Part shown: in pieces, positions 8,154-22,060 of the stretch
Layout of the letters: each line of letters opens with the position of its first letter
Numbering within the stretch: the first letter of the stretch is position 1
Virus record (IMG/VR): IMGVR_UViG_3300005613_000065
Span: 1 to 62,467 of that record
Source of the DNA: a virus
Taxonomy: Duplodnaviria > Caudoviricetes
Reading direction: 5' to 3' (one strand)
DNA: 62,467 nt
Notes under the pieces: model-generated
Databases searched by the model: none
Told to the model about the DNA's origin: nothing
Seen by the model: the letters and a program-made list of their open reading frames with translations, nothing else
Translations under genes and position numbers: made by a program

Positions 8154-8184
8154 CAGACTCAAAAGTATTGGGAGATAAAGAATC

Positions 8185-8367: not shown

Positions 8368-8379
8368 GGGCGGTCATGC

Positions 8380-8447
8380 TGCGGGGGCGTAACTTGACGT
8401 AAGACCCATTTTATGGTATAAATATAATTACCCCCGCAAATAGAAGA
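8380..8447 (+). promoter_or_regulatory. promoters and leader-complementary segment before HEG-like ORF
   Basis: TGCGGGGG 8380-8387 complementary to CCCCCGCA in the leader (~8431-8438); TTGACG 8394-8399, 17 nt, TATAAATA 8417-8424. Confidence 0.55.
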
Positions 8448-8903
8448 ATGGACTGGAACTGTGAAGGTCTCAATCGTGCCTTTGAGTGTGATGGACCGTC
8501 AGTAATTACACTGACAGAAGAAGAACTTAAACCTGTGTATGATGCTCGTGTGTCATACGTCAGAGGATCTGTGTGGATTAACAACGGATCAGAACATCAT
8601 ATGGTATTTGAAGATGAAATACCTGATGGTTGGGTGCTAGGACGTATCAACGTTCAGACTGATAAAGAACAATTCAGACAACAGGGACTTAATAATAATA
8701 GTAACGCAAAGAAATATAGAATTAAGTTTAGAAACGGTGATGTGGTAGAATGTCACCAGTTATCTAAATGGGGACGTGAAAATGGTATCAAATACACAGC
8801 ACTGAAGAGTGTGGTACACAGAACCAAACATAAGAAGAATATACACTACTACAAAAAATCTTCTCCTACTTCACACATAGAAAGCATATATCTCATTAAT
8901 TAA
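8448..8903 (+). CDS. homing-endonuclease-like DNA-binding protein with no recognisable nuclease domain
   Basis: WINNG...PDGWVLGR and NAKKY.I.F.NG...L.KW.RENG segments resemble HEG C-terminal modules (compare 11747..12397 C-terminus). Confidence 0.65.
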   Translation: MDWNCEGLNRAFECDGPSVITLTEEELKPVYDARVSYVRGSVWINNGSEHHMVFEDEIPDGWVLGRINVQTDKEQFRQQGLNNNSNAKKYRIKFRNGDVVECHQLSKWGRENGIKYTALKSVVHRTKHKKNIHYYKKSSPTSHIESIYLIN

Positions 8904-8935
8904 AGTTAGTTACCTTGAAATGTCCCCTACAGTAC
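8903..8935 (+). repeat. 33-bp element copy 2
   Basis: AAGTTAGTTACCTTGAAATGTCCCCTACAGTAC. Confidence 0.85.
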
Positions 8936-8954
8936 GAGACACCCTTACGATATT

Positions 8955-9836
8955 ATGACCATGACTCACATCTCCCATCCTGAAGATCTTGTCCTGACTG
9001 GTGATCTGTCGGTTCTTGATCTTCTTTATGATACTGCACATATCTCCATGAAGATGGATGGTATGAGCCTTGTGTGGGGCACTAATCCTGCCAATGGTAA
9101 GTTCTTTGTGTGCACCAAAGCAGCATTTAATAAGAAAAAGATTCGTCTTTGTTATTCTGATGAAGATGTAAAGACTCATTTTGGTCATCAACCAGAAGTC
9201 GAAGAGATTATGAAGTCTTGTCTTCGTTATCTTCCTCGTACTGAGAACATTTATTGGGGAGATTGGCTTGGTTTTGGTGGAACTGACACGTTCAATCAAA
9301 ACACTTTGGTCTATTCTTTTCCTGAGATTATTTCTCAGAATCTTGTTATTGCACCTCATACTCAAGTGTATGTGCATGACCAAATGCATAATGCAGTTTG
9401 TGAACCGTTGATGGAAACTTTTGTTGACACTGATGATGTCAAGTGGGTCCAGCCTTCGGTGGATCGTGTTCATCAGTCCACAAATATTCCAAAAGTGAAC
9501 ACTGATGCAATTAAGTTTCTTTCTCATAAAGAAGCAGAAGTTGCTAAGGTTTCGATCAATAAACTCATTAAAGAAGGTCAAAAAGTTGATGATGCATCTT
9601 TGATTGAGATTCTGGGTTGTCCACAACTTGTAAATCTGTATCAATTTGTAACAGAAATCAAGCTTGATTTGATGGATAGTCTTATTATTACTGATTCTCC
9701 TTCTTGTTTTCTTCCGAATGGATGGGAAACAACTGGAGAAGGTTATGTCTTTCATTCTGAAAATTATGGAAGTGTGAAACTTGTTCGTCGTGAAGAGTTT
9801 GCATACGCCAACTTCAATTTCGGTTATTCGAGTTAG
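8955..9836 (+). CDS. ligase-like nucleotidyltransferase (RNA ligase-like, DUF6267-like)
   Basis: KMDG (motif I KxDG), WGDW, GEGYVF (motif IV), VKLV.R (motif V); N-terminal HISHPED. Confidence 0.7.
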   Translation: MTMTHISHPEDLVLTGDLSVLDLLYDTAHISMKMDGMSLVWGTNPANGKFFVCTKAAFNKKKIRLCYSDEDVKTHFGHQPEVEEIMKSCLRYLPRTENIYWGDWLGFGGTDTFNQNTLVYSFPEIISQNLVIAPHTQVYVHDQMHNAVCEPLMETFVDTDDVKWVQPSVDRVHQSTNIPKVNTDAIKFLSHKEAEVAKVSINKLIKEGQKVDDASLIEILGCPQLVNLYQFVTEIKLDLMDSLIITDSPSCFLPNGWETTGEGYVFHSENYGSVKLVRREEFAYANFNFGYSS

Positions 9837-9862
9837 TTACCTGCAAAGGTCTTTATCACTGT
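9830..9862 (+). repeat. 33-bp element copy 3
   Basis: GAGTTAGTTACCTGCAAAGGTCTTTATCACTGT; supplies the TAG stop of the upstream gene. Confidence 0.95.
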
Positions 9863-9875
9863 AATTACTTGATTC

Positions 9876-11054
9876 ATGATTACTCTTCGTCCTCATCAAC
9901 AACAAGCAGTCAAAGCTCTTCAGAATCATTCTATCGGTCAGTGCATCTTTCCGACTGGTGCTGGTAAGACTTTGGTTGCAATCATGGATGCTGTGTCTCG
10001 TTTTGAGTCTGACATTTCGCGGACCATTGTTGTTGTTTGTCCACGCATTCTTCTGGTCGAACAACTTTCTTCTGAGTATCTTGAGCACATCACTAATGCG
10101 CATGTGATGCATGTGCATAGTGGTGAGACCAGACATTTCAAGACCACTAAACCCGAACAAATTAAGCTTCATCATCAAGTTTGCAAAAATGCAAACGAGC
10201 ATGAGATTATCTTTACTACCTATCATTCTCTTCATCGTATTCAGGAAGCTGAGATTGATGTAGATACCATTTACTTTGATGAGGCGCATAATTCTTGTCA
10301 GAATCACTTCTATCCTGCGACTGAATATTTCAGTCAGAATGCCAATCGCAAATACTTTTTTACCGCAACTCGTAAGACCAGTGTGACACCGAAGAAACCA
10401 GGCATGAACTGGACTGAGACCTATGGTCAGGTGATTGCACGAGTGTCTGCACCTGATCTAGTTGAGAATGGATACATTCTTCCGCCTAAAGTCAAGGTGA
10501 TTGAGATGGATAAGGTGGACAAAAAGTCTCTGACTCCTCATCTTGAGAGCAATAATGTTCTTGCTTCGATTGATGAAATTGGAATCAAAAAGATTCTAGT
10601 TTGTGTCAAGACTTCGCGACAGTTGCAGAATCTGTTCATGACAGACTTTGCATATCAATTAACAGAACGTGGTTACTCTTATCTTTACATTACGGCTAAG
10701 ACTGGCGCAATTATTGATGGTCGCAAAGTGTCCCGTGAAGAGTTCTTCAACATTCTAAATGTATGGGGTAAAGACAAATCTAAAAAGTTTGTTGTACTGC
10801 ATCGGTCGATTCTCAGCGAAGGAATTAACTGTAGTGAACTTGAGGCTGTTGTGTTTCTTCGTAATATGGACGCAATTGAGCTTCTTCAAACTGTGGGTCG
10901 TGTGATTCGTGTCGGTTCAGAGAATAAAACCTATGGTTTGTTGTGTGTGCCAGTGTATTCTAATGTTGGAGTTTCGACTCAACGTTCTCTGCAGAAGTGT
11001 GTAGATATTGTGTTTGAGAAAGGTGAAATGCTTGATTCTGTTGTTCGGAGGTGA
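9876..11054 (+). CDS. SF2 DEAH helicase (ResIII/UvsW-like)
   Basis: LRPHQ, PTGAGKT Walker A, DEAH, TAT, ILSEGIN, QTVGRVIR motifs. Confidence 0.9.
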   Translation: MITLRPHQQQAVKALQNHSIGQCIFPTGAGKTLVAIMDAVSRFESDISRTIVVVCPRILLVEQLSSEYLEHITNAHVMHVHSGETRHFKTTKPEQIKLHHQVCKNANEHEIIFTTYHSLHRIQEAEIDVDTIYFDEAHNSCQNHFYPATEYFSQNANRKYFFTATRKTSVTPKKPGMNWTETYGQVIARVSAPDLVENGYILPPKVKVIEMDKVDKKSLTPHLESNNVLASIDEIGIKKILVCVKTSRQLQNLFMTDFAYQLTERGYSYLYITAKTGAIIDGRKVSREEFFNILNVWGKDKSKKFVVLHRSILSEGINCSELEAVVFLRNMDAIELLQTVGRVIRVGSENKTYGLLCVPVYSNVGVSTQRSLQKCVDIVFEKGEMLDSVVRR

Positions 11055-11057
11055 TTG

Positions 11058-11273
11058 ATGGGATTTGATTACACTAACTCTCACATTCTTAATTCACAAC
11101 CTGGCCCAATGGGATTTGTGATTGGAAATGGGGAATATGCTGCAATTCCAATGATGGGAAGTACCACTAAGCTCATGGTAATTCATAACGATCTTCAGCT
11201 TAAAGTATGTCGAAACCGCCAATCTGCCATGAGTTTTATAGATAAACATAGAAAATCAAATAAAAAAAGTTAG
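11058..11273 (+). CDS. hypothetical cyanophage protein
   Basis: ORF track; GGAGG SD; stop inside repeat. Confidence 0.75.
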   Translation: MGFDYTNSHILNSQPGPMGFVIGNGEYAAIPMMGSTTKLMVIHNDLQLKVCRNRQSAMSFIDKHRKSNKKS

Positions 11274-11299
11274 TAACCTGCAAAGGTCCTCTGTAGTGT
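11267..11299 (+). repeat. 33-bp element copy 4
   Basis: AAGTTAGTAACCTGCAAAGGTCCTCTGTAGTGT. Confidence 0.95.
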
Positions 11300-11312
11300 A
11301 ACTGTTGACTTG

Positions 11313-11483
11313 ATGATGACTTCCTTGCATATTGAACTTTACAATGATGGTGTTTGGCAATGCCCAAATACTGGGATGATGATTCCTCTGGGATCTGCAC
11401 CTTACAATGAAGAGGAAATTGCAGAGATGGAAAGGTTCAACATCGATGCACATCTTGATGACGCAATGGACTGGGACTTCTAG
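11313..11483 (+). CDS. small acidic hypothetical protein
   Basis: read by hand MMTSLHIELYNDGVWQCPNTGMMIPLGSAPYNEEEIAEMERFNIDAHLDDAMDWDF. Confidence 0.7.
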   Translation: MMTSLHIELYNDGVWQCPNTGMMIPLGSAPYNEEEIAEMERFNIDAHLDDAMDWDF

Positions 11484-11485
11484 AA

Positions 11486-11617
11486 ATGTCAAACACTCCA
11501 AACTGGCAACATCACAGCCAAAAACAAAAGAAAACGAAAGGAACTTGTAAGGGTATTCTAAGGGGGCGTAAGCAGTCTCTGAAGGCCCTGAAACTCAAGC
11601 TAAGTAGTAAGAGTTAG
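11486..11617 (+). CDS. small basic hypothetical protein
   Basis: read by hand MSNTPNWQHHSQKQKKTKGTCKGILRGRKQSLKALKLKLSSKS; stop inside repeat. Confidence 0.65.
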   Translation: MSNTPNWQHHSQKQKKTKGTCKGILRGRKQSLKALKLKLSSKS

Positions 11618-11643
11618 TTACCTGCAAAGGTCTTCATTACTGT
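11611..11643 (+). repeat. 33-bp element copy 5 (within 55-bp direct repeat 11589-11643)
   Basis: GAGTTAGTTACCTGCAAAGGTCTTCATTACTGT. Confidence 0.95.
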
Positions 11644-11651
11644 AACCAACT

Positions 11652-11746
11652 GATAAATAATAATGCTTAATCGTGGTTGTTTAAGCAAATGAAGGGGTCT
11701 TAATGATCCCTTTTTTAATAAATAATAATAACCACGATTAAAGCAG
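11652..11746 (+). promoter_or_regulatory. HEG control module copy 3 (different sequence, same architecture)
   Basis: GATAAATA 11652-11659; hairpin TGCTTAA/TTAAGCA 11664-11687; terminator GGGGTC/GATCCC+T6 11694-11716; AATAAATA 11717-11724; leader ATAACCACGATTAA 11728-11741 complementary to 11667-11680. Confidence 0.75.
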
Positions 11747-12397
11747 ATGGAATACTACACTTACGCATATTTGCGCGAAGATGGATCACCCTACTACATT
11801 GGTAAGGGTAAAGGAAATAGAGCATATAATCAGCATAAAAGAAAAGGAATAGGTTTTTTGCCAGTTCCACCAAAAGATAGAATAATCAAACTCAAGCAGA
11901 ATCTCACCGAAAAAGAAGCATTTAGACATGAAATCTATATGATTGCTGTTTTTGGTAGAAAAGATTTGGGAACAGGTATTTTAATAAATCTTACTGATGG
12001 TGGAGAAGGATCATCTGGTGCTATTCCTTGGAATATAGGTAAGAAACACTCTCAAGAAATAGTTGAGAAGATAAGAAAAAAAGCAACAGGAAGAATACTG
12101 GATGAGAATACCAAACAAAAAATGAGTAAATCTCATAAAGGCATAAAACATACAGAAGAAACAAAGAAACTAATATCACAAAAACAACTAGGGGAAAATA
12201 ATCATAATTTTCAATATGTTTGGATATTTACCTTTGAAAGTGGTGAAGTTGTCAAAACATCAAGTATGCCAAGTTGGTGTAAAAATAATGGATATGATAA
12301 AGCAGCATTGATGAGAGTGTGTAAAGGTCAAGTTGGAAGACACAAAGACATTGTGACAGTTGAGAAAGTGTCACACAACCCCTTCCAACGGGCATAA
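11747..12397 (+). CDS. GIY-YIG homing endonuclease with NUMOD3 repeats
   Basis: YTYAY...YYIGKG...[12 protein letters not shown]; [21 protein letters not shown]3-type repeats. Confidence 0.85.
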
Positions 12398-12410
12398 AAG
12401 ACCCTATAAT
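12352..12410 (+). promoter_or_regulatory. promoter with perfect palindrome TGTGACA-N10-TGTCACA
   Basis: palindrome 12352-12375; TATAAT 12405-12410; weak -35. Confidence 0.65.
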
Positions 12411-12437
12411 ACAAAGGTAATCAACGAAACGCCTCAA

Positions 12438-12845
12438 ATGAGCACCAGAAGTCGCGTAGGTCTTGAACTTGCTGACGGAAGTATCCTCTCAATCTACTCA
12501 CATTATGATGGGTATCCTGAGTGGGCGGGTCGTATTCTTCGCACCCACTATAATACCCGTGAGAAAGTTGAGGCACTTGTGGATGGTGGAGATGTAAGTT
12601 GTCTTTGGACCGATGAAGGATTTTATACTTCTGAAGGTTCAACTCAACGGGATTGTTACGGACCTCTTCATTACAACGAAAGAGGTGAAAATTGCCCTCC
12701 TCGTCTTGATGCTAACTTGATTGAGTATGTTGGTGATGGTGAAGAATATGCCTATCTTTATACTTTGAAAGGTGAATGGGTATGCTATGAACTTCACGAA
12801 ACTCCTAAAATTGTTGAAATTCCCTCTGGAGCACTCATGGCATGA
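12438..12845 (+). CDS. conserved hypothetical phage protein
   Basis: ORF track 12360..12845; start MSTRSRVG; YSHYDGYP and EYAYLY motifs. Confidence 0.8.
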   Translation: MSTRSRVGLELADGSILSIYSHYDGYPEWAGRILRTHYNTREKVEALVDGGDVSCLWTDEGFYTSEGSTQRDCYGPLHYNERGENCPPRLDANLIEYVGDGEEYAYLYTLKGEWVCYELHETPKIVEIPSGALMA

Positions 12846-12864
12846 AACTTAAGCTAAGTAGTAA

Positions 12865-12897
12865 GAGTTAGTTACCTGCAAAGGTCTTCATTACTGT
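12865..12897 (+). repeat. 33-bp element copy 6 (within 55-bp direct repeat 12843-12897)
   Basis: identical to copy 5. Confidence 0.95.
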
Positions 12898-12914
12898 GAC
12901 CCACTAATTTAATT

Positions 12915-13475
12915 ATGAAAAATCGCTCACAAATTGGCATAAAACTTAAGTCTCTTCTCATTGCAGGTATTCTCGCAATACCTGCATTTTTTTCAAATCA
13001 AGTCAAGGCAGATGAACAACATCGTTATCTTGCAAGAACTATTCGATCTGTTGGAGTTTCTGTAACTATCAACACACGAGTTCATTGTTCTCCAGGAGAA
13101 TCTGGGAGTTATTATCCTGCAGGATTTATGGTCATCTGTCAGGACAATCGCAGGCAAGATGGAGTCGAAGTCGAATGGACTGCTAATGATCTTGATACTC
13201 TGCGCCATGAAGCACATCATATGATTCAGGATTGTGCTGCTGGTGGTATTGGTGATCGTAAAATGTCTCTGATGTTTAACACTCAAGAAGAGCTTGTTAG
13301 ATTTTTATCAAATTCTGGCTACACACAACAAGAACTACAACAAATTTCTAGTCATTATCAAAAACAAGGTGTGACTGGCTATGATTTGTTGATGGAATTG
13401 GAAGCATTTGCAGTTGCTAGATCCATTCCTGCTGATATTATTGCAAACAAAATTAAGGAGTATTGTATCGAATGA
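12915..13475 (+). CDS. putative zinc metallopeptidase-like protein with signal peptide
   Basis: HEAHH (HExxH), downstream ELEAF, hydrophobic N-terminus ending VKA. Confidence 0.7.
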   Translation: MKNRSQIGIKLKSLLIAGILAIPAFFSNQVKADEQHRYLARTIRSVGVSVTINTRVHCSPGESGSYYPAGFMVICQDNRRQDGVEVEWTANDLDTLRHEAHHMIQDCAAGGIGDRKMSLMFNTQEELVRFLSNSGYTQQELQQISSHYQKQGVTGYDLLMELEAFAVARSIPADIIANKIKEYCIE

Positions 13476-13651
13476 ATCTTGACAAATTGACTCACGTTCA
13501 AAAAGAATTACTTGCAGAAGATTGTGAAGATTTTCTTTTGCATCGTAACATTCCTCTTCGTTCGCATTCGTATGATAATATCATCGAACAAGCATTGAAA
13601 GAGGGTTATCAACTCTCCAAGTTTGATCGTTTCGTAAATCTTCCAAAATGA
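13472..13651 (+). CDS. hypothetical protein
   Basis: ORF track; ATGA overlap. Confidence 0.7.
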   Translation: MNLDKLTHVQKELLAEDCEDFLLHRNIPLRSHSYDNIIEQALKEGYQLSKFDRFVNLPK

Positions 13652-13797
13652 AAGTGCTTTTTGTAATTCTAAGTTTGACATTCATCTTTGGATGGAATGC
13701 TGTTCTTGTCCGAAGAGATGCAAAGATGTTTGATGCTTACAATCAAGAATGTGCAGAACTTCCACAATCACATCCTAATTGCCGATTCGCAAAATAA
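13648..13797 (+). CDS. small membrane or secreted protein
   Basis: read by hand MKVLFVILSLTFIFGWNAVLVRRDAKMFDAYNQECAELPQSHPNCRFAK. Confidence 0.65.
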   Translation: MKVLFVILSLTFIFGWNAVLVRRDAKMFDAYNQECAELPQSHPNCRFAK

Positions 13798-13800
13798 TTT

Positions 13801-13833
13801 AAGTTAGTAACCTTCAAAAGTCCACATTATTGT
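13801..13833 (+). repeat. 33-bp element copy 7
   Basis: AAGTTAGTAACCTTCAAAAGTCCACATTATTGT. Confidence 0.85.
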
Positions 13834-13849
13834 AACTCACTAATTTATC

Positions 13850-14134
13850 ATGAAGTATTTTGAACAAGACAATTTCTTCTTGATTGAAGATATTGAAACC
13901 AATCTGAATCTCCAACGTGGTAATATTCCTTGGAGCAAAATTGCAGAATCTTCTAAGAATGGAAAGGCTTGGTTTTACAGTCTGAATCTCACTAAATCTA
14001 CCGATCCTAACTATCGACCTAAAACTCCAGCTACTTGGGTAAAAAAAGGATACGTATTTACATCTCGCAAAAGTCCAAACCTGAACACTGGTGAGCCAGG
14101 ATACTACATTTGGTGCACGAAATCACCAGAGTAA
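13850..14134 (+). CDS. hypothetical protein
   Basis: ORF track. Confidence 0.75.
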   Translation: MKYFEQDNFFLIEDIETNLNLQRGNIPWSKIAESSKNGKAWFYSLNLTKSTDPNYRPKTPATWVKKGYVFTSRKSPNLNTGEPGYYIWCTKSPE

Positions 14135-14174
14135 ATTATTACTCTATTTTGCTATTTTTATTTTATTCTAACCC

Positions 14175-14384
14175 ATGAACAATTCTTCTCAGATTCTCCG
14201 TGAAATGCAAAGTCTTCAAAAAACCTGGAGGCAGCAGAACTTTATGTTGACGAAAGAACAATCTGCAAGGTATCAAGAACTGTCTCTACTTCGCCAAGCA
14301 TTTATTTCATATTGGAAAGAGCAGGGTTTGGTATGGACTGGCCCATCTAATGTAGGTAAAGCCAAAACTGAATCTGCAGCTTGA
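14175..14384 (+). CDS. hypothetical cyanophage protein
   Basis: ORF track. Confidence 0.75.
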   Translation: MNNSSQILREMQSLQKTWRQQNFMLTKEQSARYQELSLLRQAFISYWKEQGLVWTGPSNVGKAKTESAA

Positions 14385-14403
14385 TTTTTGTTGTTTATTG
14401 AAT

Positions 14404-14730
14404 ATGATGATGCAATTTGATTCAAATCGTTCCGAAGTCTTTGAAACGGAAGGTACAGTATTTGAGTACAATCATGAACGTACAGAATACATCGCAGATG
14501 ACATTCTAGAACAATATGAAGCTCAAATGCGTAAGATGGTTGATGAGTTTAACTCGTCAAGTCGAGCAAAGAAACTATCACTTGCAGATGACATCTTTTC
14601 TCTTCATTCAGAATGGAATGTAAAAGATAATGATGAAACATTGTATCTGGTCTTTAATCATGATGATGAATGTTTCACTGATGTCAGAACTGATAATAAA
14701 CATTATGCAAATCCTTTCAAAAAAAGTTAG
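14404..14730 (+). CDS. hypothetical protein
   Basis: ORF track 14398..14730; stop inside repeat. Confidence 0.75.
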   Translation: MMMQFDSNRSEVFETEGTVFEYNHERTEYIADDILEQYEAQMRKMVDEFNSSSRAKKLSLADDIFSLHSEWNVKDNDETLYLVFNHDDECFTDVRTDNKHYANPFKKS

Positions 14731-14756
14731 TTACCTGCAAAGGTCATCTGTAGTGT
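14724..14756 (+). repeat. 33-bp element copy 8
   Basis: AAGTTAGTTACCTGCAAAGGTCATCTGTAGTGT. Confidence 0.95.
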
Positions 14757-14781
14757 GAGAAACGCAATTCACTGAAACTTG

Positions 14782-14943
14782 ATGAAGTATGACATCCGCA
14801 TCGAATACAAAGACGGAACTGTTGAAAAGTTTCAACGCAAAAGTAACATCAAGCCAATCAACTGTGTCAAACTGAACGACAAAATTGCAGAGGAAATCTT
14901 TCCCCGCGATTGGAGAGAAATTAGCTCAATTCCTGTTTATTGA
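14782..14943 (+). CDS. small hypothetical protein
   Basis: read by hand MKYDIRIEYKDGTVEKFQRKSNIKPINCVKLNDKIAEEIFPRDWREISSIPVY. Confidence 0.7.
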   Translation: MKYDIRIEYKDGTVEKFQRKSNIKPINCVKLNDKIAEEIFPRDWREISSIPVY

Positions 14944-14945
14944 TT

Positions 14946-15134
14946 ATGACTAACGGCTACACTCTCAACCGAGTTGAGTTCACTCAAGATGAAGAAACTT
15001 GCATTCTTAAGTTTCTTCGTGAAGCACAAGAATGTGGTTATCCTTCAGGCAATGAGCCTTGGTATCCAATTATTAACTCTATCATGCGAAAGTATTATGA
15101 TAGTGATGTCAAAGAAGCACAGGTGATTTGGTAA
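14946..15134 (+). CDS. hypothetical protein
   Basis: ORF track 14940..15134. Confidence 0.75.
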   Translation: MTNGYTLNRVEFTQDEETCILKFLREAQECGYPSGNEPWYPIINSIMRKYYDSDVKEAQVIW

Positions 15135-15289
15135 TGATTTACAACATTGCTAGTGATCTTGACACTCGAAGAATTGTCTGGATTTGTTCATCTTATCAGA
15201 CTGTACATTCCTCTGTGGAAGTATCAGCAATCTGTCGCAAGATGAGTCGAATTAAAGTTAGTAACCTGCAAAGGTCATCTGTAGTATGA
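15134..15289 (+). CDS. small hypothetical protein
   Basis: read by hand MIYNIASDLDTRRIVWIC...; coupled start; reads through repeat copy 9. Confidence 0.5.
   Translation: MIYNIASDLDTRRIVWICSSYQTVHSSVEVSAICRKMSRIKVSNLQRSSVV
15255..15287 (+). repeat. 33-bp element copy 9
   Basis: AAGTTAGTAACCTGCAAAGGTCATCTGTAGTAT. Confidence 0.95.
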
Positions 15290-15303
15290 GAAACGCAAAT
15301 TGT

Positions 15304-15471
15304 ATGACTGAAACTTTCACTGTTCGTTTTATCTCTGAAGAGCTTGATTCTCCAGAGTATTTTGGGCCTTTTCATTCTGAAGATGATGCCTATGATTTTG
15401 CTGATGAATCTAACATTCGTTTGAGTCTTGCCGGGATTCCTTCTTGGGTTGCATCTTATTCTGTTGTATGA
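15304..15471 (+). CDS. small acidic hypothetical protein
   Basis: ORF track 15286..15471; likely start MTETF. Confidence 0.75.
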   Translation: MTETFTVRFISEELDSPEYFGPFHSEDDAYDFADESNIRLSLAGIPSWVASYSVV

Positions 15472-15544
15472 ATCTGACATTATTTGCGGTGATTACTTTC
15501 ACCATTTGCTTTACATTTCTTTCATTCACTCTTCCTTAAATCTT

Positions 15545-15670
15545 ATGATTGAAACTTACAACTTCAGTGGTAATGTTGTCACCTTTTTAGGTTTGATTGG
15601 TGTAGTTTCTACTGGTATCATCGTGGCTACATCTTTTCGGCGTTATTTTAACTCTCCTCTACGGAAATGA
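15545..15670 (+). CDS. small membrane protein
   Basis: C-terminal part of ORF 15428..15670; one TM helix, ends RRYFNSPLRK. Confidence 0.65.
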   Translation: MIETYNFSGNVVTFLGLIGVVSTGIIVATSFRRYFNSPLRK

Positions 15671-15855
15671 AAATCACAAAGCAACAAGCATTGCTTCGGT
15701 TTCGTGATGACTTGAAAGTAGTATCTCGTTCCAATCCTGACATTCAAAACGATACGATTATGAAACGTGAAGCATGGAATGATTTTGTTGATTCTCTCAA
15801 CAAAGAAGGTTATGTAACTGATTCTCAAGCATTTAACTGGTCAAATCCTTTCTGA
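15667..15855 (+). CDS. hypothetical cyanophage protein
   Basis: ORF track. Confidence 0.8.
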   Translation: MKITKQQALLRFRDDLKVVSRSNPDIQNDTIMKREAWNDFVDSLNKEGYVTDSQAFNWSNPF

Positions 15856-15858
15856 ATT

Positions 15859-16056
15859 ATGAAACTCGAAACTCAACTTATTTGTCTTCAAGAACGTCTG
15901 CAAGATGCAGTGAATGTATGTAATGAATCTCCAAAATTGGAGGATCAAGGTTATCCTTATGCTACTGGTTACTCTCGATCTGCAATGCAAGGTGTAATTG
16001 AAGATTTGAATCGAATCATGCAACAACTCAGTGATTCTCAGGAGATTGACTTTTAA
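15859..16056 (+). CDS. hypothetical cyanophage protein
   Basis: ORF track; GYPYATGYSRS motif. Confidence 0.8.
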   Translation: MKLETQLICLQERLQDAVNVCNESPKLEDQGYPYATGYSRSAMQGVIEDLNRIMQQLSDSQEIDF

Positions 16057-16063
16057 GGTATTC

Positions 16064-16096
16064 AAGTGAGTTACCTGCAAAGGTCATCTGTAGTGT
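16064..16096 (+). repeat. 33-bp element copy 10
   Basis: AAGTGAGTTACCTGCAAAGGTCATCTGTAGTGT. Confidence 0.95.
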
Positions 16097-16119
16097 AAGA
16101 ATCAAGCAAATCAAGACAA

Positions 16120-16479
16120 ATGCAAATCGCACAAAGCAAAACTGAGTTTCTGACTGAATCATTGGTCGAGCAATTGAACGATCGTTGGTATGTTGAGAAT
16201 ATCGAATCTGAGAGTAATTATGATTACTTTGCGAAAGCATTTATCAAATCTGGTCGTAAGTATTTGAAGATTATGATTTGTGATGTAAATCGTAAGAATG
16301 CAGAATACAATGCTCGTTCGCATGGGCGAGTCTACATGTTTGTGGAGAAAGAGACTGGTTTTTGTTACAAACCCGCAAGTCTGAATGCACCTGCCAAAGG
16401 TGTGCGATTTGGGATTCATCAACTCGCCAATTATCCTGAGTTTTGTGATAAGTTTGGCAGTTTTCTTTATCTACGTTGA
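16120..16479 (+). CDS. conserved hypothetical phage protein
   Basis: GRKYLKI...FVEKETG..YKPAS..APAKGVRF family pattern. Confidence 0.85.
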   Translation: MQIAQSKTEFLTESLVEQLNDRWYVENIESESNYDYFAKAFIKSGRKYLKIMICDVNRKNAEYNARSHGRVYMFVEKETGFCYKPASLNAPAKGVRFGIHQLANYPEFCDKFGSFLYLR

Positions 16480-16555
16480 TATTTCTTTTTCGCTATTGTT
16501 ATTACACATTTCTTGGTATGTGTATTGTTATTCTAATTGAGTATTTAAAATCACA

Positions 16556-16750
16556 ATGATGTTATCTGAAGAAACAATTTGCAAAATTGCTGATGCATTA
16601 GTAAATGATGTCAGTGATTATGTTTATTCCAGTGAAGAGTATGCATCTGTCATGCGTAAATTAATTGAAGAAGCATTAGATGCAAAAATGGGAGAAATGG
16701 ATGACCAATTGCATTTTGAGTTAGGTTTAATTTTATTTGAGAAACTTTAA
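16556..16750 (+). CDS. hypothetical cyanophage protein
   Basis: ORF track. Confidence 0.75.
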   Translation: MMLSEETICKIADALVNDVSDYVYSSEEYASVMRKLIEEALDAKMGEMDDQLHFELGLILFEKL

Positions 16751-16758
16751 CGGTATTC

Positions 16759-16791
16759 AAGTGAGTTACCTGCAAAGGTCTGTAGTAGTGT
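16759..16791 (+). repeat. 33-bp element copy 11
   Basis: AAGTGAGTTACCTGCAAAGGTCTGTAGTAGTGT. Confidence 0.95.
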
Positions 16792-16812
16792 AAGAATCAA
16801 ACTTTTTCATTG

Positions 16813-16974
16813 ATGCTTTATTCAATTTTGACTTGCAAACGTGATGATCCCGAACAGAATTGGGAAGTGATCATGGGCGCACCATGTGATATGGATCGTG
16901 CGTTAATCAAACTTCAGTATTATCGTAAGAACTGGGGTGTGCAACAAAAGTATCGTGTTGCGCGTGCAAAGTAA
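16813..16974 (+). CDS. small hypothetical protein
   Basis: read by hand MLYSILTCKRDDPEQNWEVIMGAPCDMDRALIKLQYYRKNWGVQQKYRVARAK. Confidence 0.7.
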   Translation: MLYSILTCKRDDPEQNWEVIMGAPCDMDRALIKLQYYRKNWGVQQKYRVARAK

Positions 16975-16990
16975 TTCAATTTTATTCATT

Positions 16991-17170
16991 ATGACACATT
17001 CCAATCCTTATGTTGAACAACTCATTGAGATGGGTTATGATCGTGCAGATTGTGAGACTGTAGCTTCTGCAGGAATGAAGAAAACCTTTCCGCTTACAAT
17101 TCATGGAAGAGTGTATGAAACTCAAGAGCAATATGATGAAGCTCTTGCTGATTTTATCAATGGACTTTAA
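16991..17170 (+). CDS. hypothetical cyanophage protein
   Basis: ORF track 16937..17170; likely start MTHSNPY. Confidence 0.75.
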   Translation: MTHSNPYVEQLIEMGYDRADCETVASAGMKKTFPLTIHGRVYETQEQYDEALADFINGL

Positions 17171-17172
17171 TA

Positions 17173-17346
17173 ATGAATGAAACTGAAATAATTCAACAAT
17201 ATGCTCATTTGATGATTGAAGGCATGAGCAAAGAGGATATGTATGAAATTGTTTTTGAGACCATATCGCAACAATTAAGTAAGTATGATAAAGATCAGCT
17301 TATGGAAGAAATTGAACATTTTTATCCAGAACTTTTGAGCAATTAA
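17173..17346 (+). CDS. hypothetical protein, paralog of 18012..18188
   Basis: read by hand MNETEIIQQYAHLMIEGMSKEDMYEIVFETISQQLSKYDKDQLMEEIEHFYPELLSN. Confidence 0.75.
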   Translation: MNETEIIQQYAHLMIEGMSKEDMYEIVFETISQQLSKYDKDQLMEEIEHFYPELLSN

Positions 17347-17378
17347 AGTAAGTTACCTGCAAAGGTCAGTAGTATTGT
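17346..17378 (+). repeat. 33-bp element copy 12
   Basis: AAGTAAGTTACCTGCAAAGGTCAGTAGTATTGT. Confidence 0.95.
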
Positions 17379-17396
17379 AAGTTTCGCTTTTGTTTT

Positions 17397-17729
17397 ATGT
17401 TCTGCATTGAGATGACTTTCGCTGTCATGAATCCTGACTTTCAGGGTGCTTATCTTGCGATTTGTGATGATGATATTCGTACTGCTAAATTGTTTGATAC
17501 CAAGCATGAGATGTATGGTTGGATTCGTGATCAAATTGAGAATCAAGGTGTAAGTCAAGTGACTACAACTGTTCTTGGCAAAAATGGTGAAGTTGATGAT
17601 CGACTTGTTTGTGATTCTGTTCGGTATTTTGCTGATGAGAATTGTTACAAAGGCGGTATGTATGAGCCAATCTTTGGTGATAATATTCGCCAAGTTCCTT
17701 CTTACAAAGATAAGTTCTCCTGGATTTAA
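17397..17729 (+). CDS. hypothetical protein (single-gene unit between two repeats)
   Basis: ORF track. Confidence 0.8.
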   Translation: MFCIEMTFAVMNPDFQGAYLAICDDDIRTAKLFDTKHEMYGWIRDQIENQGVSQVTTTVLGKNGEVDDRLVCDSVRYFADENCYKGGMYEPIFGDNIRQVPSYKDKFSWI

Positions 17730-17760
17730 GTTAGTTACCTGCAAAGGTCTGTAGTATTGT
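17728..17760 (+). repeat. 33-bp element copy 13
   Basis: AAGTTAGTTACCTGCAAAGGTCTGTAGTATTGT. Confidence 0.95.
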
Positions 17761-17781
17761 AAGTTTCGCTTCTTAATTCTG

Positions 17782-17985
17782 ATGCCTACTGTGGATCGCC
17801 TTGAAATGCTCACGGCAAGGGAACAACTAATGGAGGACATTGATGCTATTATTGAAGGTTTTTACTTTGACAATCCAGTTCAAAACTGCTGCGGTGATGA
17901 CCGTCTCCAACTAACTGCCACTGATAGTGATGAGCTCATCCGCACACTATGTGATGCCGTCTGCAAAAACTTCCCCACTAATTGA
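17782..17985 (+). CDS. hypothetical cyanophage protein
   Basis: ORF track. Confidence 0.8.
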   Translation: MPTVDRLEMLTAREQLMEDIDAIIEGFYFDNPVQNCCGDDRLQLTATDSDELIRTLCDAVCKNFPTN

Positions 17986-18011
17986 TACAAACTCATTCTT
18001 CCTTAATTAAC

Positions 18012-18188
18012 ATGAACCGCACTGAACTACAAGAGTCCTACATTCAACAATTGATTGAAGGTATGGATTACAAAACGATGGAACGACTTGTTTATGATTC
18101 ACTGAATGATAATTTAAGTGCTTACGGTGAGGCAGAACTTATCACTGAGATTGAAGAGTATTATCCCGAACTGTTGGAGGAAAATTGA
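18012..18188 (+). CDS. hypothetical cyanophage protein
   Basis: ORF track 17982..18188; start MNRTEL. Confidence 0.8.
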   Translation: MNRTELQESYIQQLIEGMDYKTMERLVYDSLNDNLSAYGEAELITEIEEYYPELLEEN

Positions 18189-18343
18189 TGCCTTACACTG
18201 TTGAGATTACTGAAACTTATTACACCACAGTTTCTTTTGAAACTGAAGAAGAAGCAAAGGAGTTTATGAAGGAACCCAATTATGATCTGGTTGATAGTTG
18301 GGAACTTGATGATGCCAAACTGAAACTTTTGGAGGGAAACTGA
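18188..18343 (+). CDS. small acidic hypothetical protein
   Basis: read by hand MPYTVEITETYYTTVSFETEEEAKEFMKEPNYDLVDSWELDDAKLKLLEGN; coupled at both ends. Confidence 0.75.
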   Translation: MPYTVEITETYYTTVSFETEEEAKEFMKEPNYDLVDSWELDDAKLKLLEGN

Positions 18344-18591
18344 TGCCAACTGTTCAAGTTTACGGTGTCAAGTTTGACACTACAGATGATGGATTTGGTG
18401 ATCTTTCCAGGGAGGAAACTTTGAAACTGGAGAGAGACATTGAAGGTCGCATCTTTGAGATAGATTGTCACCCTGATGCTGATATTGCTGAGTTTGAGTA
18501 TGAGATTTGTGATGCCATTACTGAAGAAACTGGTTGGTGCGTGAATACTTTTAGCTATCGTCATGTTGTCATTGGAGCAAACGATAACTGA
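18343..18591 (+). CDS. acidic hypothetical protein
   Basis: ORF track; ITEETGWCV motif. Confidence 0.8.
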   Translation: MPTVQVYGVKFDTTDDGFGDLSREETLKLERDIEGRIFEIDCHPDADIAEFEYEICDAITEETGWCVNTFSYRHVVIGANDN

Positions 18592-18857
18592 TGTATTCTA
18601 ATCTCTCAAAGATTAAGCCAGCCTTCAGGACTGAGGGACAAATCACAGGGAATTGGGGTAGACCAAAGACTCGCACTCATGGTAATACTGATCTCGGATT
18701 GACTTCTAAAGATCATATCACAATCACAAAACAAAGTGATTACATTCAAAGAATGTATCAGGTTCTTGATCATACTCAAGATCCAAAGATTCGACGATTT
18801 GCTTTTAATGAAATTAAAAAGTATTTGATACAAACAAATCAATGGAAAAACACTTAA
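18591..18857 (+). CDS. hypothetical cyanophage protein
   Basis: ORF track. Confidence 0.8.
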   Translation: MYSNLSKIKPAFRTEGQITGNWGRPKTRTHGNTDLGLTSKDHITITKQSDYIQRMYQVLDHTQDPKIRRFAFNEIKKYLIQTNQWKNT

Positions 18858-18993
18858 AAGCATGGTTTTTATCTTAAAAAGCATTTAAAAAAGGCTTATT
18901 AAATGTTATTAAGCGTTTTGTAATGATTATTACTGCTTTTTAATATTGATAAGAATTCGTATCAAATAGTGATATGAATACTGATTATGATGA

Positions 18994-19083
18994 TAGAAAC
19001 CTTCTGCTTATGTGTCTAGAAACCTTCTAAATGCCTCATGTTCTTGTGATTAATGCCTTCTAAATGCCTCATGTTCTTGTGAT
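18994..19083. repeat. tandem direct repeats in AT-rich intergenic region
   Basis: CCTTCTAAATGCCTCATGTTCTTGTGAT at 19023-19050 and 19056-19083; TAGAAACCTTCT at 18994 and 19017. Confidence 0.9.
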
Positions 19084-19093
19084 CTTAGGCCGT

Positions 19094-19122
19094 ATCATAT
19101 CAGGCCTTTTCAGTATTGTCAA
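19094..19122 (-). promoter_or_regulatory. minus-strand sigma70-type promoter
   Basis: reverse complement reads TTGACA-17 nt-TATGAT. Confidence 0.7.
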
Positions 19123-19146
19123 GGGCCCCCAGATTTTTCAGAATTA

Positions 19147-19179
19147 TTGTTAGTAACCTGCAAAGGTCATTTACAGTGT
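19147..19179 (+). repeat. 33-bp element copy 14
   Basis: TTGTTAGTAACCTGCAAAGGTCATTTACAGTGT. Confidence 0.9.
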
Positions 19180-19195
19180 CACCCATTGAATCCTG

Positions 19196-19321
19196 ATGAC
19201 CTCGACACAGCAACTATTGCAATCGATTGATACATTAAAAGCAGAAGGTCATCAATCAATTAAGCTTATGCAATTGCCATCACAAGCCAAACGTAAGCGC
19301 AAGTCTGTATGGTCTCGATAA
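19196..19321 (+). CDS. small basic hypothetical protein
   Basis: read by hand MTSTQQLLQSIDTLKAEGHQSIKLMQLPSQAKRKRKSVWSR. Confidence 0.65.
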   Translation: MTSTQQLLQSIDTLKAEGHQSIKLMQLPSQAKRKRKSVWSR

Positions 19322-19414
19322 GACTCTACAGCAGGGTTTCATTATCTTTTAGGTATCATTTGTCCTTAGTATGACATTAAACTGCTTCAATGTCCTCTTT
19401 ATTCTTCTTGAATT

Positions 19415-19564
19415 ATGTCTCGCGAATTGATGATTGGTCTGCTTCGTAAGGGTCGGAATGGCAATCAGATTCTGAATATTCTGGATGCTATTGTGGTTAC
19501 TGATGATTTGGAATCGATTGAGATTCCTGCTTCTGAGCCTACTTTGGAAGAGCTTGAATTCTGA
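19415..19564 (+). CDS. small hypothetical cyanophage protein
   Basis: read by hand MSRELMIGLLRKGRNGNQILNILDAIVVTDDLESIEIPASEPTLEELEF. Confidence 0.7.
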   Translation: MSRELMIGLLRKGRNGNQILNILDAIVVTDDLESIEIPASEPTLEELEF

Positions 19565-19575
19565 TTGTTTCTAAA

Positions 19576-19820
19576 TAAATGAGTATTTGTTGAGATCTTG
19601 TAGAGCAGCACTTGAACTCTCCCATTGGGAAACAGAGGTAACAATCTGACAAAGAAGCAAGCAAATACTCATTTAATTGATTATACTCAGAGGGAGTTTA
19701 TCTTGTCTCCGGCGTAATAAAACAGAACATAAAATCAGAGTAAAAGATGATGAGAATTAAATAAAAAGCAGGACGATTCCTGATTAGAACTTTATGTCAA
19801 ATTCTAATCACTTAGGAGTC
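19576..19820 (+). ncRNA. candidate structured non-coding RNA
   Basis: no ORF; perfect 14-bp inverted repeat 19576-19589/19662-19675 plus two further stem domains; strand assumed. Confidence 0.4.
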
Positions 19821-19838
19821 ATATTTTGTTGCGTATTA

Positions 19839-19871
19839 AAGTTAGTTACCTCGAAAGGTCCCCTGTAGTGT
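19839..19871 (+). repeat. 33-bp element copy 15
   Basis: AAGTTAGTTACCTCGAAAGGTCCCCTGTAGTGT. Confidence 0.9.
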
Positions 19872-19888
19872 AATCGTTGATTCCTCTC

Positions 19889-20248
19889 ATGCGTAAGATC
19901 GAAGCTCAAATGAATTCTGCCATCACTAACAATGTGCATTGGCAATCTGCTAACACTACTGTTACCTTCGATTCGGAAACTAATGAGTCCAAAGTGTATC
20001 TGTATGGCAATCTGATCGCTGAGGTTGGCGATAACTACTTTAAGCTTTATGATGGTGATTATCAGTCTGCTACTACAAAGTCGCGACTGAATGCTATTCT
20101 GGCTACACATGGCGCACCTGGTGAGTGTGTCTTTCAGAAGAATTTGAAGTGGTTTATTCGTCTCTGGAATGGCACGGAATACTTCACTACTGAATTCCGT
20201 AATGGCATGAGGCTTGGTGCACTTCCTTGGCAACTATGCCTCGCCTGA
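19889..20248 (+). CDS. conserved hypothetical cyanophage protein
   Basis: ORF track 19877..20248; MRKIE...TTKSRLNA family pattern. Confidence 0.85.
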   Translation: MRKIEAQMNSAITNNVHWQSANTTVTFDSETNESKVYLYGNLIAEVGDNYFKLYDGDYQSATTKSRLNAILATHGAPGECVFQKNLKWFIRLWNGTEYFTTEFRNGMRLGALPWQLCLA

Positions 20249-20273
20249 TTCTTATTTTATCTCCTGATTCTTT

Positions 20274-20555
20274 ATGTACACTCAAGTTCAAACAATTCAA
20301 GCACAGTTTGACTTTATCTCTGATCTGCCTTATACTGGCTTAGCTGAAGTATGCGAAGAGTCTCAAGTCACACCTATCAGTGCTACATTGCATGAAAATA
20401 CTTCTCATGGTGTGCCTTATTTTGATATTGAATTTGTATCAATACAAGATGCAATTCGTTTCACTCGAACATACTTAGACTCGAATAATTTGAGTGAACT
20501 TTGTGATTATCTTCAGCTTGATGTGACAAAATCTGAACTGCAAGATATGCTATAG
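20274..20555 (+). CDS. hypothetical protein
   Basis: ORF track. Confidence 0.75.
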   Translation: MYTQVQTIQAQFDFISDLPYTGLAEVCEESQVTPISATLHENTSHGVPYFDIEFVSIQDAIRFTRTYLDSNNLSELCDYLQLDVTKSELQDML

Positions 20556-20571
20556 ATAATTGTTACTGACT

Positions 20572-20613
20572 GCCGAAGAGTTCTTGACAGTCTCTTCGGC
20601 TATATGGTAAAAT
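20572..20613 (+). promoter_or_regulatory. sigma70-type promoter with -35 in the loop of a 9-bp hairpin
   Basis: GCCGAAGAG/CTCTTCGGC 20572-20600; TTGACA 20584-20589, 18 nt, TAAAAT 20608-20613. Confidence 0.65.
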
Positions 20614-20844
20614 ACAGTATATCCCAAAAGCACAGTCTTATGTGTTATTTTATAACGCGCCGGGACGCGCGTAACGGCCGTGATAGAATGATCGTAATGA
20701 TCGTAAAATGATTCGAGGCCCCCCCTTGATAAAAACGCATAAGTCCCTAACCTACAAAAGTATATTCCCGAGAGAGAAATAAAAAGAGAAAAAAATTTCA
20801 GAAGAGTAGAAAAGATATATAAACCGGCGCATAAAAATAAGAAG

Positions 20845-21045
20845 ATGAAAAAAAATTCCGTAGAAAAAATTTACCACATATATCTGAAGGATGAATGTGT
20901 TTTACATAATTTAAATGAGGAAATGTTTAAGAGTCATTGGGAGATTTTAAATAATCTAGTAGGATTAATGAAAACTGATTATACATCAGAAGATTTATCT
21001 TATGAGATGTTAGAGAAAAGGTTTGAAGAATTAAAGGAGGATTAA
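20845..21045 (+). CDS. hypothetical cyanophage protein
   Basis: ORF track. Confidence 0.75.
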   Translation: MKKNSVEKIYHIYLKDECVLHNLNEEMFKSHWEILNNLVGLMKTDYTSEDLSYEMLEKRFEELKED

Positions 21046-21064
21046 AGGAGGAGAGGAGTTATTA

Positions 21065-21268
21065 ATGAAAAGCCGTGAGAGACCATATTGGAATTTTTGG
21101 AAAGTTATTATTGCTGGGTGGTTAATTCAATATCCGATAATATTTTTCAAGACAATATTTGTCATTATATTTGTAGGAGGGATAGGGTTGATGTATATGA
21201 CATCAGAGACATCAAATGAATTGACAGGGGATAAATATGAGAGTATAATGAAGACTGAAATGGAGTGA
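21065..21268 (+). CDS. hypothetical membrane protein
   Basis: ORF track; hydrophobic segments; strong SD. Confidence 0.7.
   Translation: MKSRERPYWNFWKVIIAGWLIQYPIIFFKTIFVIIFVGGIGLMYMTSETSNELTGDKYESIMKTEME
21221..21249 (+). promoter_or_regulatory. consensus sigma70 promoter with embedded late-type ATAAATA
   Basis: TTGACA-17 nt-TATAAT. Confidence 0.75.
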
Positions 21269-21277
21269 TTCTAATTC

Positions 21278-22060
21278 ATGGCTAAAGGTTTTACTATAAA
21301 GGCTGCATCACCTAAATCAAAAAAGAATGAAGGTCCTGAATGGGACTATGATGCAATTAAGGAAAGAATGCGAGGGAAGAGAATTGTCTTTTGTCTTCCA
21401 GGACGGGGATGTTCTTATACATTTTTAAAGAATTTTGTTCAATTATGTTTTGATTTGGTGCAGAATCAGATGAGTATTCAGATCAGTCAAGATTATAGTT
21501 CAATGGTTAATTTTGCAAGATGTAAATGTCTTGGTGCAAATGTTCTTCGTGGACCAGATCAAATTCCATGGGATGGAAAATTGGAATATGATTATCAATT
21601 ATGGATTGATAGTGATATTGTGTTTAATACTGAGAAGTTCTGGCAACTTTGTGATCTTGTTTTAAACGAAGAGGGAGAAGAGAAACAAATTGTTGCTGGA
21701 TGGTATAGTACAGAAGATGGTCGTACAACTTCAGTAGCTCATTGGTTAGAAGAAGATGATTTCCGTAATAATGGTGGAGTAATGAATCATGAAATGGTAG
21801 ATGGTATTTCAAAACGAAAGAAACCATTTACTGTTGATTATACTGGATTTGGATGGGTGATGATTCAGAATGGAGTTTTTGAAAATGAGGGAATGAAATA
21901 TCCATGGTTTGCACCAAAGATGCAAGTTTTTGAATCTGGTGCAGTACAAGATATGTGTGGTGAAGATGTATCATTCTGTTTAGATGCAATTGAAGCAGGT
22001 TATGAGATTTGGTGTGATCCACGAATTCGAGTGGGTCATGAAAAGATGAGAGTCATTTGA
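21278..22060 (+). CDS. GT-A fold glycosyltransferase-like protein
   Basis: WIDSD (DxD), TGFG, GEDVSFC, VGHEK motifs. Confidence 0.8.
   Translation: MAKGFTIKAASPKSKKNEGPEWDYDAIKERMRGKRIVFCLPGRGCSYTFLKNFVQLCFDLVQNQMSIQISQDYSSMVNFARCKCLGANVLRGPDQIPWDGKLEYDYQLWIDSDIVFNTEKFWQLCDLVLNEEGEEKQIVAGWYSTEDGRTTSVAHWLEEDDFRNNGGVMNHEMVDGISKRKKPFTVDYTGFGWVMIQNGVFENEGMKYPWFAPKMQVFESGAVQDMCGEDVSFCLDAIEAGYEIWCDPRIRVGHEKMRVI

Follow-up and report, generated by a model that had tools for sequence, protein, structure and literature searches.

Promoter-like repeats as candidate portable homology for cassette exchange and short patch copying in a T4-like cyanomyovirus

RESULTS AND DISCUSSION

Neighbouring copies of a promoter-like repeat share private flanks

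The whole stretch of DNA analysed here (hereafter the window) is a 62.5-kb segment (62,467 nt; IMG/VR record IMGVR_UViG_3300005613_000065) of a marine T4-like cyanomyovirus, in which a promoter-like element of about 36 nt recurs at the head of small-gene cassettes. The reading that we favour, and hold to be reasonably probable, is that the promoter copies provide portable homology through which recombination and short, non-reciprocal patch copying take place. The observations on which it is built are the repeats themselves, the extents of the patches that pairs of copies share, the junction sequences, the single-copy and moved-cassette states of relatives and the ancient position of one copy, copy 10. 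The core of the element, GTTACCTGCAAAGGTC, occurs 14 times in the window with at most three mismatches, always on the + strand and between positions 8909 and 19845; 0.37 occurrences are expected by chance, and none of 100 shuffled sequences attains this number. Scanning the window on both strands with a weight matrix revealed no further copy. Copies are referred to below by number (1–14) or by the position of their core (e.g. 11617 or 12871).

An earlier note on this DNA had pointed out that neighbouring copies share private flanks and had ascribed this to duplication during the acquisition of new genes. The strings that it quoted for three pairs (its copies 8/9, 10/11 and 12/13, numbered one higher than our 7/8, 9/10 and 11/12) are all present in the sequence, as is the series of 5-nt spacers, ATCTG in copies 7, 8 and 9, then TGTAG, AGTAG and TGTAG. 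In gapped alignments, the shared patches comprise (i) positions 14723–14780 at copy 7 (core 14730, element 14724–14759) and 15254–15316 at copy 8 (15261, 15255–15290); (ii) 16049–16105 at copy 9 (16070, 16064–16099) and 16744–16800 at copy 10 (16765, 16759–16794); (iii) 17342–17389 at copy 11 (17352, 17346–17381) and 17724–17771 at copy 12 (17734, 17728–17763). A fourth pair, beyond the range of the earlier note, is formed by copy 4 (11611–11646) and copy 5 (12871, 12865–12900), where 11589–11673 aligns with 12843–12925. The genes behind paired copies are indeed unrelated, an all-against-all blastp comparison of the open reading frames (ORFs) of the array having found no similarity between them.

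The resemblance between neighbours is not a matter of chance. Over the interval from −45 to +60, mean identity is 0.523 for adjacent and 0.471 for non-adjacent copies (22 of 20,000 permutations reach the observed value). With the flanks only, the observed adjacency is reached by 7 of 10,000 permutations of the order, and the best match of a copy is a neighbour in 8 of the 14 cases (reached by 20 of 10,000 permutations). The core alone displays no adjacency signal (2,500 of 20,000 permutations), and the −10 region alone displays one (228 of 20,000). The sharing of flanks is confirmed, and the argument that a promoter consensus alone cannot produce it holds.

Copy 5 as a patch pasted between resident genes

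The relatives used for comparison are metagenomic contigs. The one referred to below as the closest relative (L033, of which L034 is the reverse complement; from IMG/VR) is about 88% identical and carries 15 copies; L114, L120, L122, L124, L125, L127 and L128 have its arrangement, and L115 and L117 (99.7–99.8% identical) have the arrangement of the window.

At the site of window copies 4/5, the relatives have a single copy, and copy 5 is absent from 3 of 3 contigs. In the relative, the stop codon of ORF_A (12438–12845 in the window, + strand, phrog_1987) overlaps the start codon of ORF_B (12915–13475, + strand, a resident secreted-type protein); in the window, an 88-nt insert splits exactly this junction, where the duplicated patch 12843–12925 lies. 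The insert consists of 28 nt identical to the upstream flank of copy 4, i.e. the 3′ end of another gene (ORF 11486–11617), followed by the promoter, its leader, an ATG and about nine ORF_A-like codons, and a direct repeat of 14 nt, imperfect, marks its two ends. The patch has lengthened the N-terminus of ORF_B by some 8–9 residues compared with relatives and outgroups; each of 11 related loci examined has the short form. For copies 4 and 5 alike, the best match is the single copy of the relative (0.70 and 0.71, respectively). Judged from these sequences, copy 5 is a derived state, in which a promoter patch, with copy 4 as its apparent donor, was copied and pasted between resident genes, and not a gene acquisition. 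The earlier note was right that a copy is duplicated together with its leader, and the shared stretch even extends into the first codons of the donor gene; its coupling of duplication to gene acquisition fails at this site, where copy 5 was placed at the junction of two resident genes with coupled translation.

Between copy 4 and ORF_A lies a free-standing, homing-endonuclease-like ORF (11747–12397, + strand; NUMOD3, phrog_314), which is absent from all four close relatives covering the site. ORF_A is 54% identical to the relative's copy, compared with more than 90% for its neighbours, and probably represents an allele of foreign origin that came in together with the endonuclease gene. The divergent ORF_A and the endonuclease gene suggest a homing event, either separate or linked. 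The combination of a NUMOD3 ORF missing from relatives and a divergent adjacent ORF_A is reminiscent of free-standing homing endonuclease genes with co-conversion of their flanks, as outlined in part of PMC2988022. Homing explains at most the 4/5 site, the other three pairs being without an endonuclease gene.

An old promoter position, copy 10, with the sequence of its neighbour

Copy 9 is located upstream of ORF 16120–16479 (DUF7717) and copy 10 directly after ORF 16556–16750. In outgroups, an element precedes the homologue of ORF 16120 in nearly all cases, i.e. this promoter–gene association is ancient, and an element is found 11 nt past the stop codon of the 16556–16750 homologue in 8 of 10 loci. 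As both sites are occupied in outgroups, the positions of copies 9 and 10 are old. Yet copy 10 is copy-9-like: the two private upstream variants of copy 9 and its leader recur there, and copy 10 carries copy 9 sequence from −13 to about +30 (patch 16744–16800). Given the age of the position, the likeness must stem from a later overwrite, which amounts to gene conversion, with copy 9 as the apparent donor. Gene conversion had been named by the earlier note itself as an alternative to its own proposal, and for copy 10 it is the alternative that fits.

Pairs 7/8 and 11/12

In the two remaining pairs, only the downstream leader is common to both copies and the upstream flanks differ. Copy 7 heads a cassette (14782–15134, + strand) of two small ORFs, 14782–14943 and 14946–15134; a small conserved ORF (15134–15289, + strand), missing in the ~88% identical relatives, comes next and is followed by copy 8. 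In outgroups, gene 15134 stands directly behind the homologue of ORF 14404–14730, with its end overlapping the promoter copy that follows; the presence of copy 7 with its two genes is thus due to an insertion. The ~88% identical relatives have the junction between gene 14404 and the promoter in common with the window and miss all of 14782 to 15289. All five such contigs covering the site carry one hybrid copy in place of copies 7 and 8, so that, as at copy 5, there are relatives in which a single copy stands without the intervening unit, a state that the earlier note had proposed to look for. This single state reflects either a deletion by recombination between copies 7 and 8 or a gain by the window at a resident copy. 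In addition, the leader of copies 7/8 differs from that of the relatives' single orthologous copy, and the copy 7 patch ends in a 10-nt remnant of codons 2–4 of the gene of copy 8; a further transfer of a patch from copy 8 to copy 7 is therefore needed.

Copy 11 lies upstream of ORF 17397–17729 and copy 12 upstream of ORF 17782–17985. Gene 17397 is an old promoter-headed single-gene cassette, found with other orders and other leaders in outgroups. As a separate observation, the only clear paralogues in the array, ORFs 17173–17346 and 18012–18188 (42% identity over 55 aa, E 4e-15), belong to different cassettes, the former before copy 11 and the latter after copy 12.

Cassette turnover at the repeats

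The ends of long matches between the window and the relative fall inside elements in 8 of 20 cases, while elements cover 6.8% of the region (binomial P = 2.9e-5). At the place of window copy 9, the relatives have two copies enclosing a cassette; its genes are homologues of 14782–15134, here about 1.3 kb further on, so that this cassette stands at a different promoter in the two lineages. All five relatives concerned (L034 at position 8208, L120, L122, L124 and L128) possess an extra promoter copy of ~57 nt between the homologues of ORFs 15545–15670 and 15667–15855, which overlap by ATGA in the window: a promoter copy was gained or lost and gene content stayed unchanged. ORF 13850–14134, behind copy 6 (13801–13836, + strand, variant core), is present in one relative contig and absent from two; the junction immediately follows the −10-like box of copy 6. 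Among outgroups, the order of promoter-headed cassettes is permuted. The arrangement of the window itself is repeated over 10.5 kb by an independent contig with 99.7% identity and is therefore no assembly artefact.

Two further comparisons may be recorded here. Genes 18012, 18343, 18591 and 19889 (within 18012–20248) are ordered differently in the window and in L034, L116, L118, L121 and L129, and some of the breakpoints in this interval are without a promoter copy in the window, which indicates that not every rearrangement is repeat-bounded. Between L115 and the window, 31 alignment columns differ; they include a 2-nt deletion in the leader of copy 8 (15301–15302), an 11-nt indel near 21030 (21030–21040) and substitution clusters at 12815–12824 and 14867–14924.

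Patch copying in other arrays of the clade

An instance of patch copying is found in the closest relative, where the 16120 homologue has lent its promoter, leader and four initial codons to an unrelated gene, to which they are fused; the two copies sharing this patch are non-adjacent, 2.2 kb apart with three copies between them. Across the clade, 16 of 1,281 pooled copy pairs share a leader or an upstream flank, six of them adjacent versus about three expected. In eight other arrays, adjacency is marginal at best, the best being that of L048 (285 of 10,000 permutations). Patch copying is thus recurrent in the clade, and the strong neighbour pattern of the window is the product of recent events in one lineage, not a standing record of growth.

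Possible origin of the shared flanks

Our proposal runs as follows. In the recombination-driven replication of T4-type phages, repeats on the same strand would represent portable homology, and exchange between copies could delete, insert or move whole cassettes. In non-reciprocal copying, whether through gene conversion or through template switching, a patch of 45–105 nt, made up of the promoter, the leader and the donor gene's first 3–9 codons, would be transferred to a copy or a gene boundary in the vicinity, with one junction in the conserved core or in microhomology and the other in microhomology within the first codons. Such copying would yield private flanks common to neighbours in front of unrelated genes. 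We infer both the mechanism of recombination and its direction.

A number of points tell against this proposal or narrow its reach. Duplicative insertion would fit pairs 7/8 and 11/12 as well as conversion. The array of the closest relative has no adjacency signal (4,354 of 10,000 permutations); strong adjacency is confined to this genome, and the pooled count given above is too small to establish a general neighbour bias. The relatives are metagenomic contigs and may belong to one lineage. As to the promoter character of the element, 0 of the 14 copies pass a sigma-70 consensus scan. One metatranscriptome run holds a 606-nt piece (15213–15818, 4 differences) that starts upstream of copy 8; this run is stored as contigs, hence without 5′ ends, and is neutral on the transcript start.

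Taken as a record of its own growth, the array would have expanded by entry of a gene behind an existing copy, with simultaneous duplication of copy and leader, and its pairs would mark acquisitions in order. Leader-only sharing at 7/8 and 11/12 would suit such insertions, given an illegitimate junction in the leader or first codons and a homologous junction in the next promoter, and so would the single copy at the 7/8 site in five of five relatives and the insertion of the copy 7 cassette between genes 14404 and 15134 relative to outgroups. However, the relatives share the 14404–promoter junction but have another leader, so that the 7/8 leader is younger than the insertion; copy 5 sits between old resident genes with no gene gained there; the position of copy 10 predates the lineage (8 of 10 outgroup loci); promoter copies come or go with gene content unchanged; and the closest relative combines the lack of an adjacency signal with a patch common to non-adjacent copies. 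We therefore consider a growth record unlikely. The acquisition reading of the earlier note is partly supported, its acquisition-coupled duplication and its growth record being contradicted by two of the four pairs: the array shows a few recent local copying events and no growth order.

Selection could also be invoked, the shared flanks then representing promoter and leader sub-types (of a given strength, timing or translation) that are adjacent through co-regulation of neighbouring cassettes. Private differences do affect spacer, −10-like box and leader, where promoter strength is tunable, and the −10 region alone is alike between neighbours (see above). This explanation does not predict that sharing reaches upstream coding sequence (28 nt of a gene 3′ end in pair 4/5) or includes remnants of the donor's first codons, and the orthologous copies of relatives have other leaders before the same genes; we regard it as quite improbable. 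We give hardly any weight to the idea that a dedicated site-specific recombination system captures cassettes at the repeats. The array does recall integron cassette arrays, as small cassettes, each opening with one repeated element, follow one another in an order that varies among genomes. The integron attC site is a structured site downstream of a promoterless cassette. Here, the repeat is upstream and promoter-like, the constant spacing between it and the start codon speaks for a role in expression, it has no conserved inverted-repeat structure and folds no better than random sequence, the junctions are variable in position and rest on microhomology, and a scan of 28 window ORFs against Pfam or PHROGs gave neither an integrase nor a recombinase family. 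Finally, the window and all its close relatives are metagenomic, and repeats of 45–105 nt could mislead an assembler into chimeric joins between co-occurring strains. The order of the window recurs in the separately recorded 99.7%-identical contig, at least five separately recorded contigs reproduce the alternative order, and private flanks are features of the sequence rather than of joins, so that an assembly artefact is next to inconceivable.

The element as a putative promoter with a dedicated upstream box

The preferred reading, portable homology combined with patch copying, takes the element for a promoter. The element family occurs near the helicase homologue in many IMG/VR contigs, with 268 copies (225 distinct) in the window and related loci, all of which read along the coding strand, the reverse strand having none. 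A copy starts with a strongly conserved box (about −38 to −15); a spacer of 5 nt separates it from a −10-like hexamer, TAnnnT, behind which there is a short leader. The first ATG is mostly found 24–28 nt past the box and the start codon some 13–17 nt past the hexamer; the stop codon of the upstream gene often lies inside the 5′ end of the element, and each copy heads a cassette of 1–5 small genes, the array as a whole belonging to the hyperplastic, early-type part of the genome. A weak −35-like hexamer lies 17 nt upstream of the TAnnnT hexamer. From this anatomy we infer promoter activity, the best functional reading of the element being that of a promoter with a dedicated upstream box.

In the window, all 14 copies fall within 8.9–19.9 kb, among ORFs of 41–392 aa, with none in 22–62 kb. 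Besides those described above, they are copy 1 (8903–8938; a degenerate core with three mismatches, upstream of ORF 8955–9836, DUF6267), copy 2 (9830–9865, upstream of the helicase ORF 9876–11054), copy 3 (11267–11302, upstream of ORFs 11313–11483 and 11486–11617), copy 13 (19147–19182) and copy 14 (19839–19874, upstream of ORF 19889–20248, Kyano_Gp96), all on the + strand. The association of copy 14 with its gene is conserved in outgroups, and gene order differs in relatives. Just past the array, two sites match the sigma-70 consensus on the + strand (20584–20613 and 21221–21249, 11/12 and 12/12); they indicate that, in addition to the promoters of the repeat class, the phage employs canonical ones of host type, and RB11-B has the same mixture.

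The core contains an ACCT-N4-AGGT palindrome, and a hairpin (an N4-type promoter or an RNA tetraloop) was considered and rejected. Three of the four main lineage variants have lost one pair of the palindrome with no compensating change; the element is therefore read as a DNA signal. Consistent with this, the folding energy of the 36-nt element, −4.19 kcal/mol compared with −3.78 kcal/mol for random 36-mers, is no better than random. The 50 nt upstream of the 14 copies fold more weakly than random 50-mers of the array (means of −4.79 and −6.75 kcal/mol, respectively), and 1 of 10 terminator-like sites (17673–17694) lies within 60 nt upstream of a copy. A scan of 8000–21500 against Rfam gave two sub-threshold chance matches, neither at a repeat.

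Among cultured phages, strict matches are concentrated in one region and on one strand in RB11-B (8 of 8), S-B05 (9 of 9) and S-B43 (4 of 5), and the genomes of Syn9 and S-PM2 have no match to the element, which is clade-specific. The box exists in four main lineage variants, and all copies of a genome carry the same variant: orthologous promoters before the same genes differ between lineages and match their genome-mates (loci including L001, L034, L038, L048, L061, L070 and L073). This uniformity reflects either concerted evolution or co-evolution with a putative binding factor. A profile search for Sigma70_r2 gave nothing above the cut-off in relatives, and PF00940 (T7-like RNA polymerase) was unmatched in RB11-B, S-B05, S-B43 and Syn9 in a search whose power is unproven, control genomes being equally unmatched. 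As a speculation, the element may be the recognition site of a clade-specific transcription factor or sigma-like protein, with promoter, leader and start codon propagating themselves by template switching to neighbouring gene boundaries; if so, such a self-propagating module would uncouple co-transcribed genes and create N-terminal chimeras.

Relation to known systems

The array has its closest parallels in the promoter-early stem-loop (PeSL) cassettes of T4-type phages, for which the parts drawn on here of Arbiol et al. 2010 (PMC2839356) and Comeau et al. 2014 (PMC4122927) report that recombination between promoter/terminator units deletes, inserts and swaps small ORFs and that mini-circles form. 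Common to both are promoter repeats before small ORFs in hyperplastic regions, and boundaries of insertions, deletions, replacements and displacements between close relatives that fall in the repeats. According to the same portions of these papers, PeSL crossovers map to the interval from the −10 box to the ATG, there are 'half' elements or additional ones, and a PmSL variant exists (PMC4122927). The present array differs in lacking a stem-loop or terminator adjoining the promoter, in having a 36–40-bp clade-specific box, with 0 of 14 copies flagged as sigma-70 consensus promoters, and in its host group, the marine cyanomyoviruses; it goes beyond PeSLs in the evidence that patches are copied non-reciprocally and take the first codons of the donor with them. 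Text searches of the literature, covering main articles, found no description of the element or of PeSL-like arrays in cyanomyoviruses; the only cyanophage paper found to mention PeSLs reports, in the part drawn on, few of them in S-PM2 (PMC4503421). As the stem-loop is missing and no copy passes as a near-consensus sigma-70 promoter, we do not file the array as PeSL in the strict sense; it is a variant of the gene shuffling already known in T4-like phages.

In T4 middle promoters, a MotA box centred near −30 replaces the −35 element. The array promoters are similar in combining a TAnnnT-type −10 with a conserved upstream box other than the host −35 hexamer, a layout that, by analogy, suggests a phage-specified factor. 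The box sequence is different, however, and spans about −38 to −15 here; T4-like cyanophages are reported, in part of PMC5780444, to be without motA and asiA. The 'mobile promoters' of prokaryotes, as presented in part of PMC3575422, likewise place very similar promoters before unrelated genes within a genome, away from the gene to which they first belonged; unlike them, the copies studied here form a dense one-strand phage array, the copied unit takes in leader and start codons, and the context is one of recombination.

Hyperplastic regions hold most of the unknown, host-adaptive genes of T4-like phages, and gain, loss and rewiring of such genes are known mainly from a few coliphage and vibriophage pairs. 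The present array would extend promoter-mediated cassette shuffling to an abundant marine cyanophage group and would imply that shuffling does not need the terminator half of a PeSL. It also offers base-level examples in which promoter, leader and start codons appear to have been pasted before another gene, such a patch giving a co-transcribed gene a promoter of its own, of presumed activity, and changing the N-terminus of the protein. Furthermore, the concertedly evolving, clade-specific box points to a transcription factor or polymerase specificity not described for cyanomyoviruses.

The phage and the surroundings of the array

The window is a fragment of a virus record with a CheckV completeness of 29%, and all its long ORFs lie on the + strand. 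It encodes T4-type baseplate domains (gp6, gp8 and gp9/10), a terminase, a tail sheath protein and a Kyano_Gp96 protein, and the nearest cultured phages are the Synechococcus phages RB11-B, RN05-S, S-B05 and S-B43, with ~75% nucleotide identity over conserved parts. From these structural genes and nearest relatives, the phage is a marine T4-like cyanomyovirus (Kyanoviridae). The repeat array occupies a small-gene region between the helicase and the structural module. Two giant structural ORFs lie among the baseplate genes, one at 25800–37967 (4,055 aa, with a YHYH domain at residues 1249–1381) and the other at 40914–48677 (2,587 aa, DUF4815). A virion RNA polymerase, as part of an N4-like or crAss-like phage, had at first been suspected here; this was rejected in view of the YHYH and DUF4815 domains of these ORFs and their T4 baseplate neighbours.

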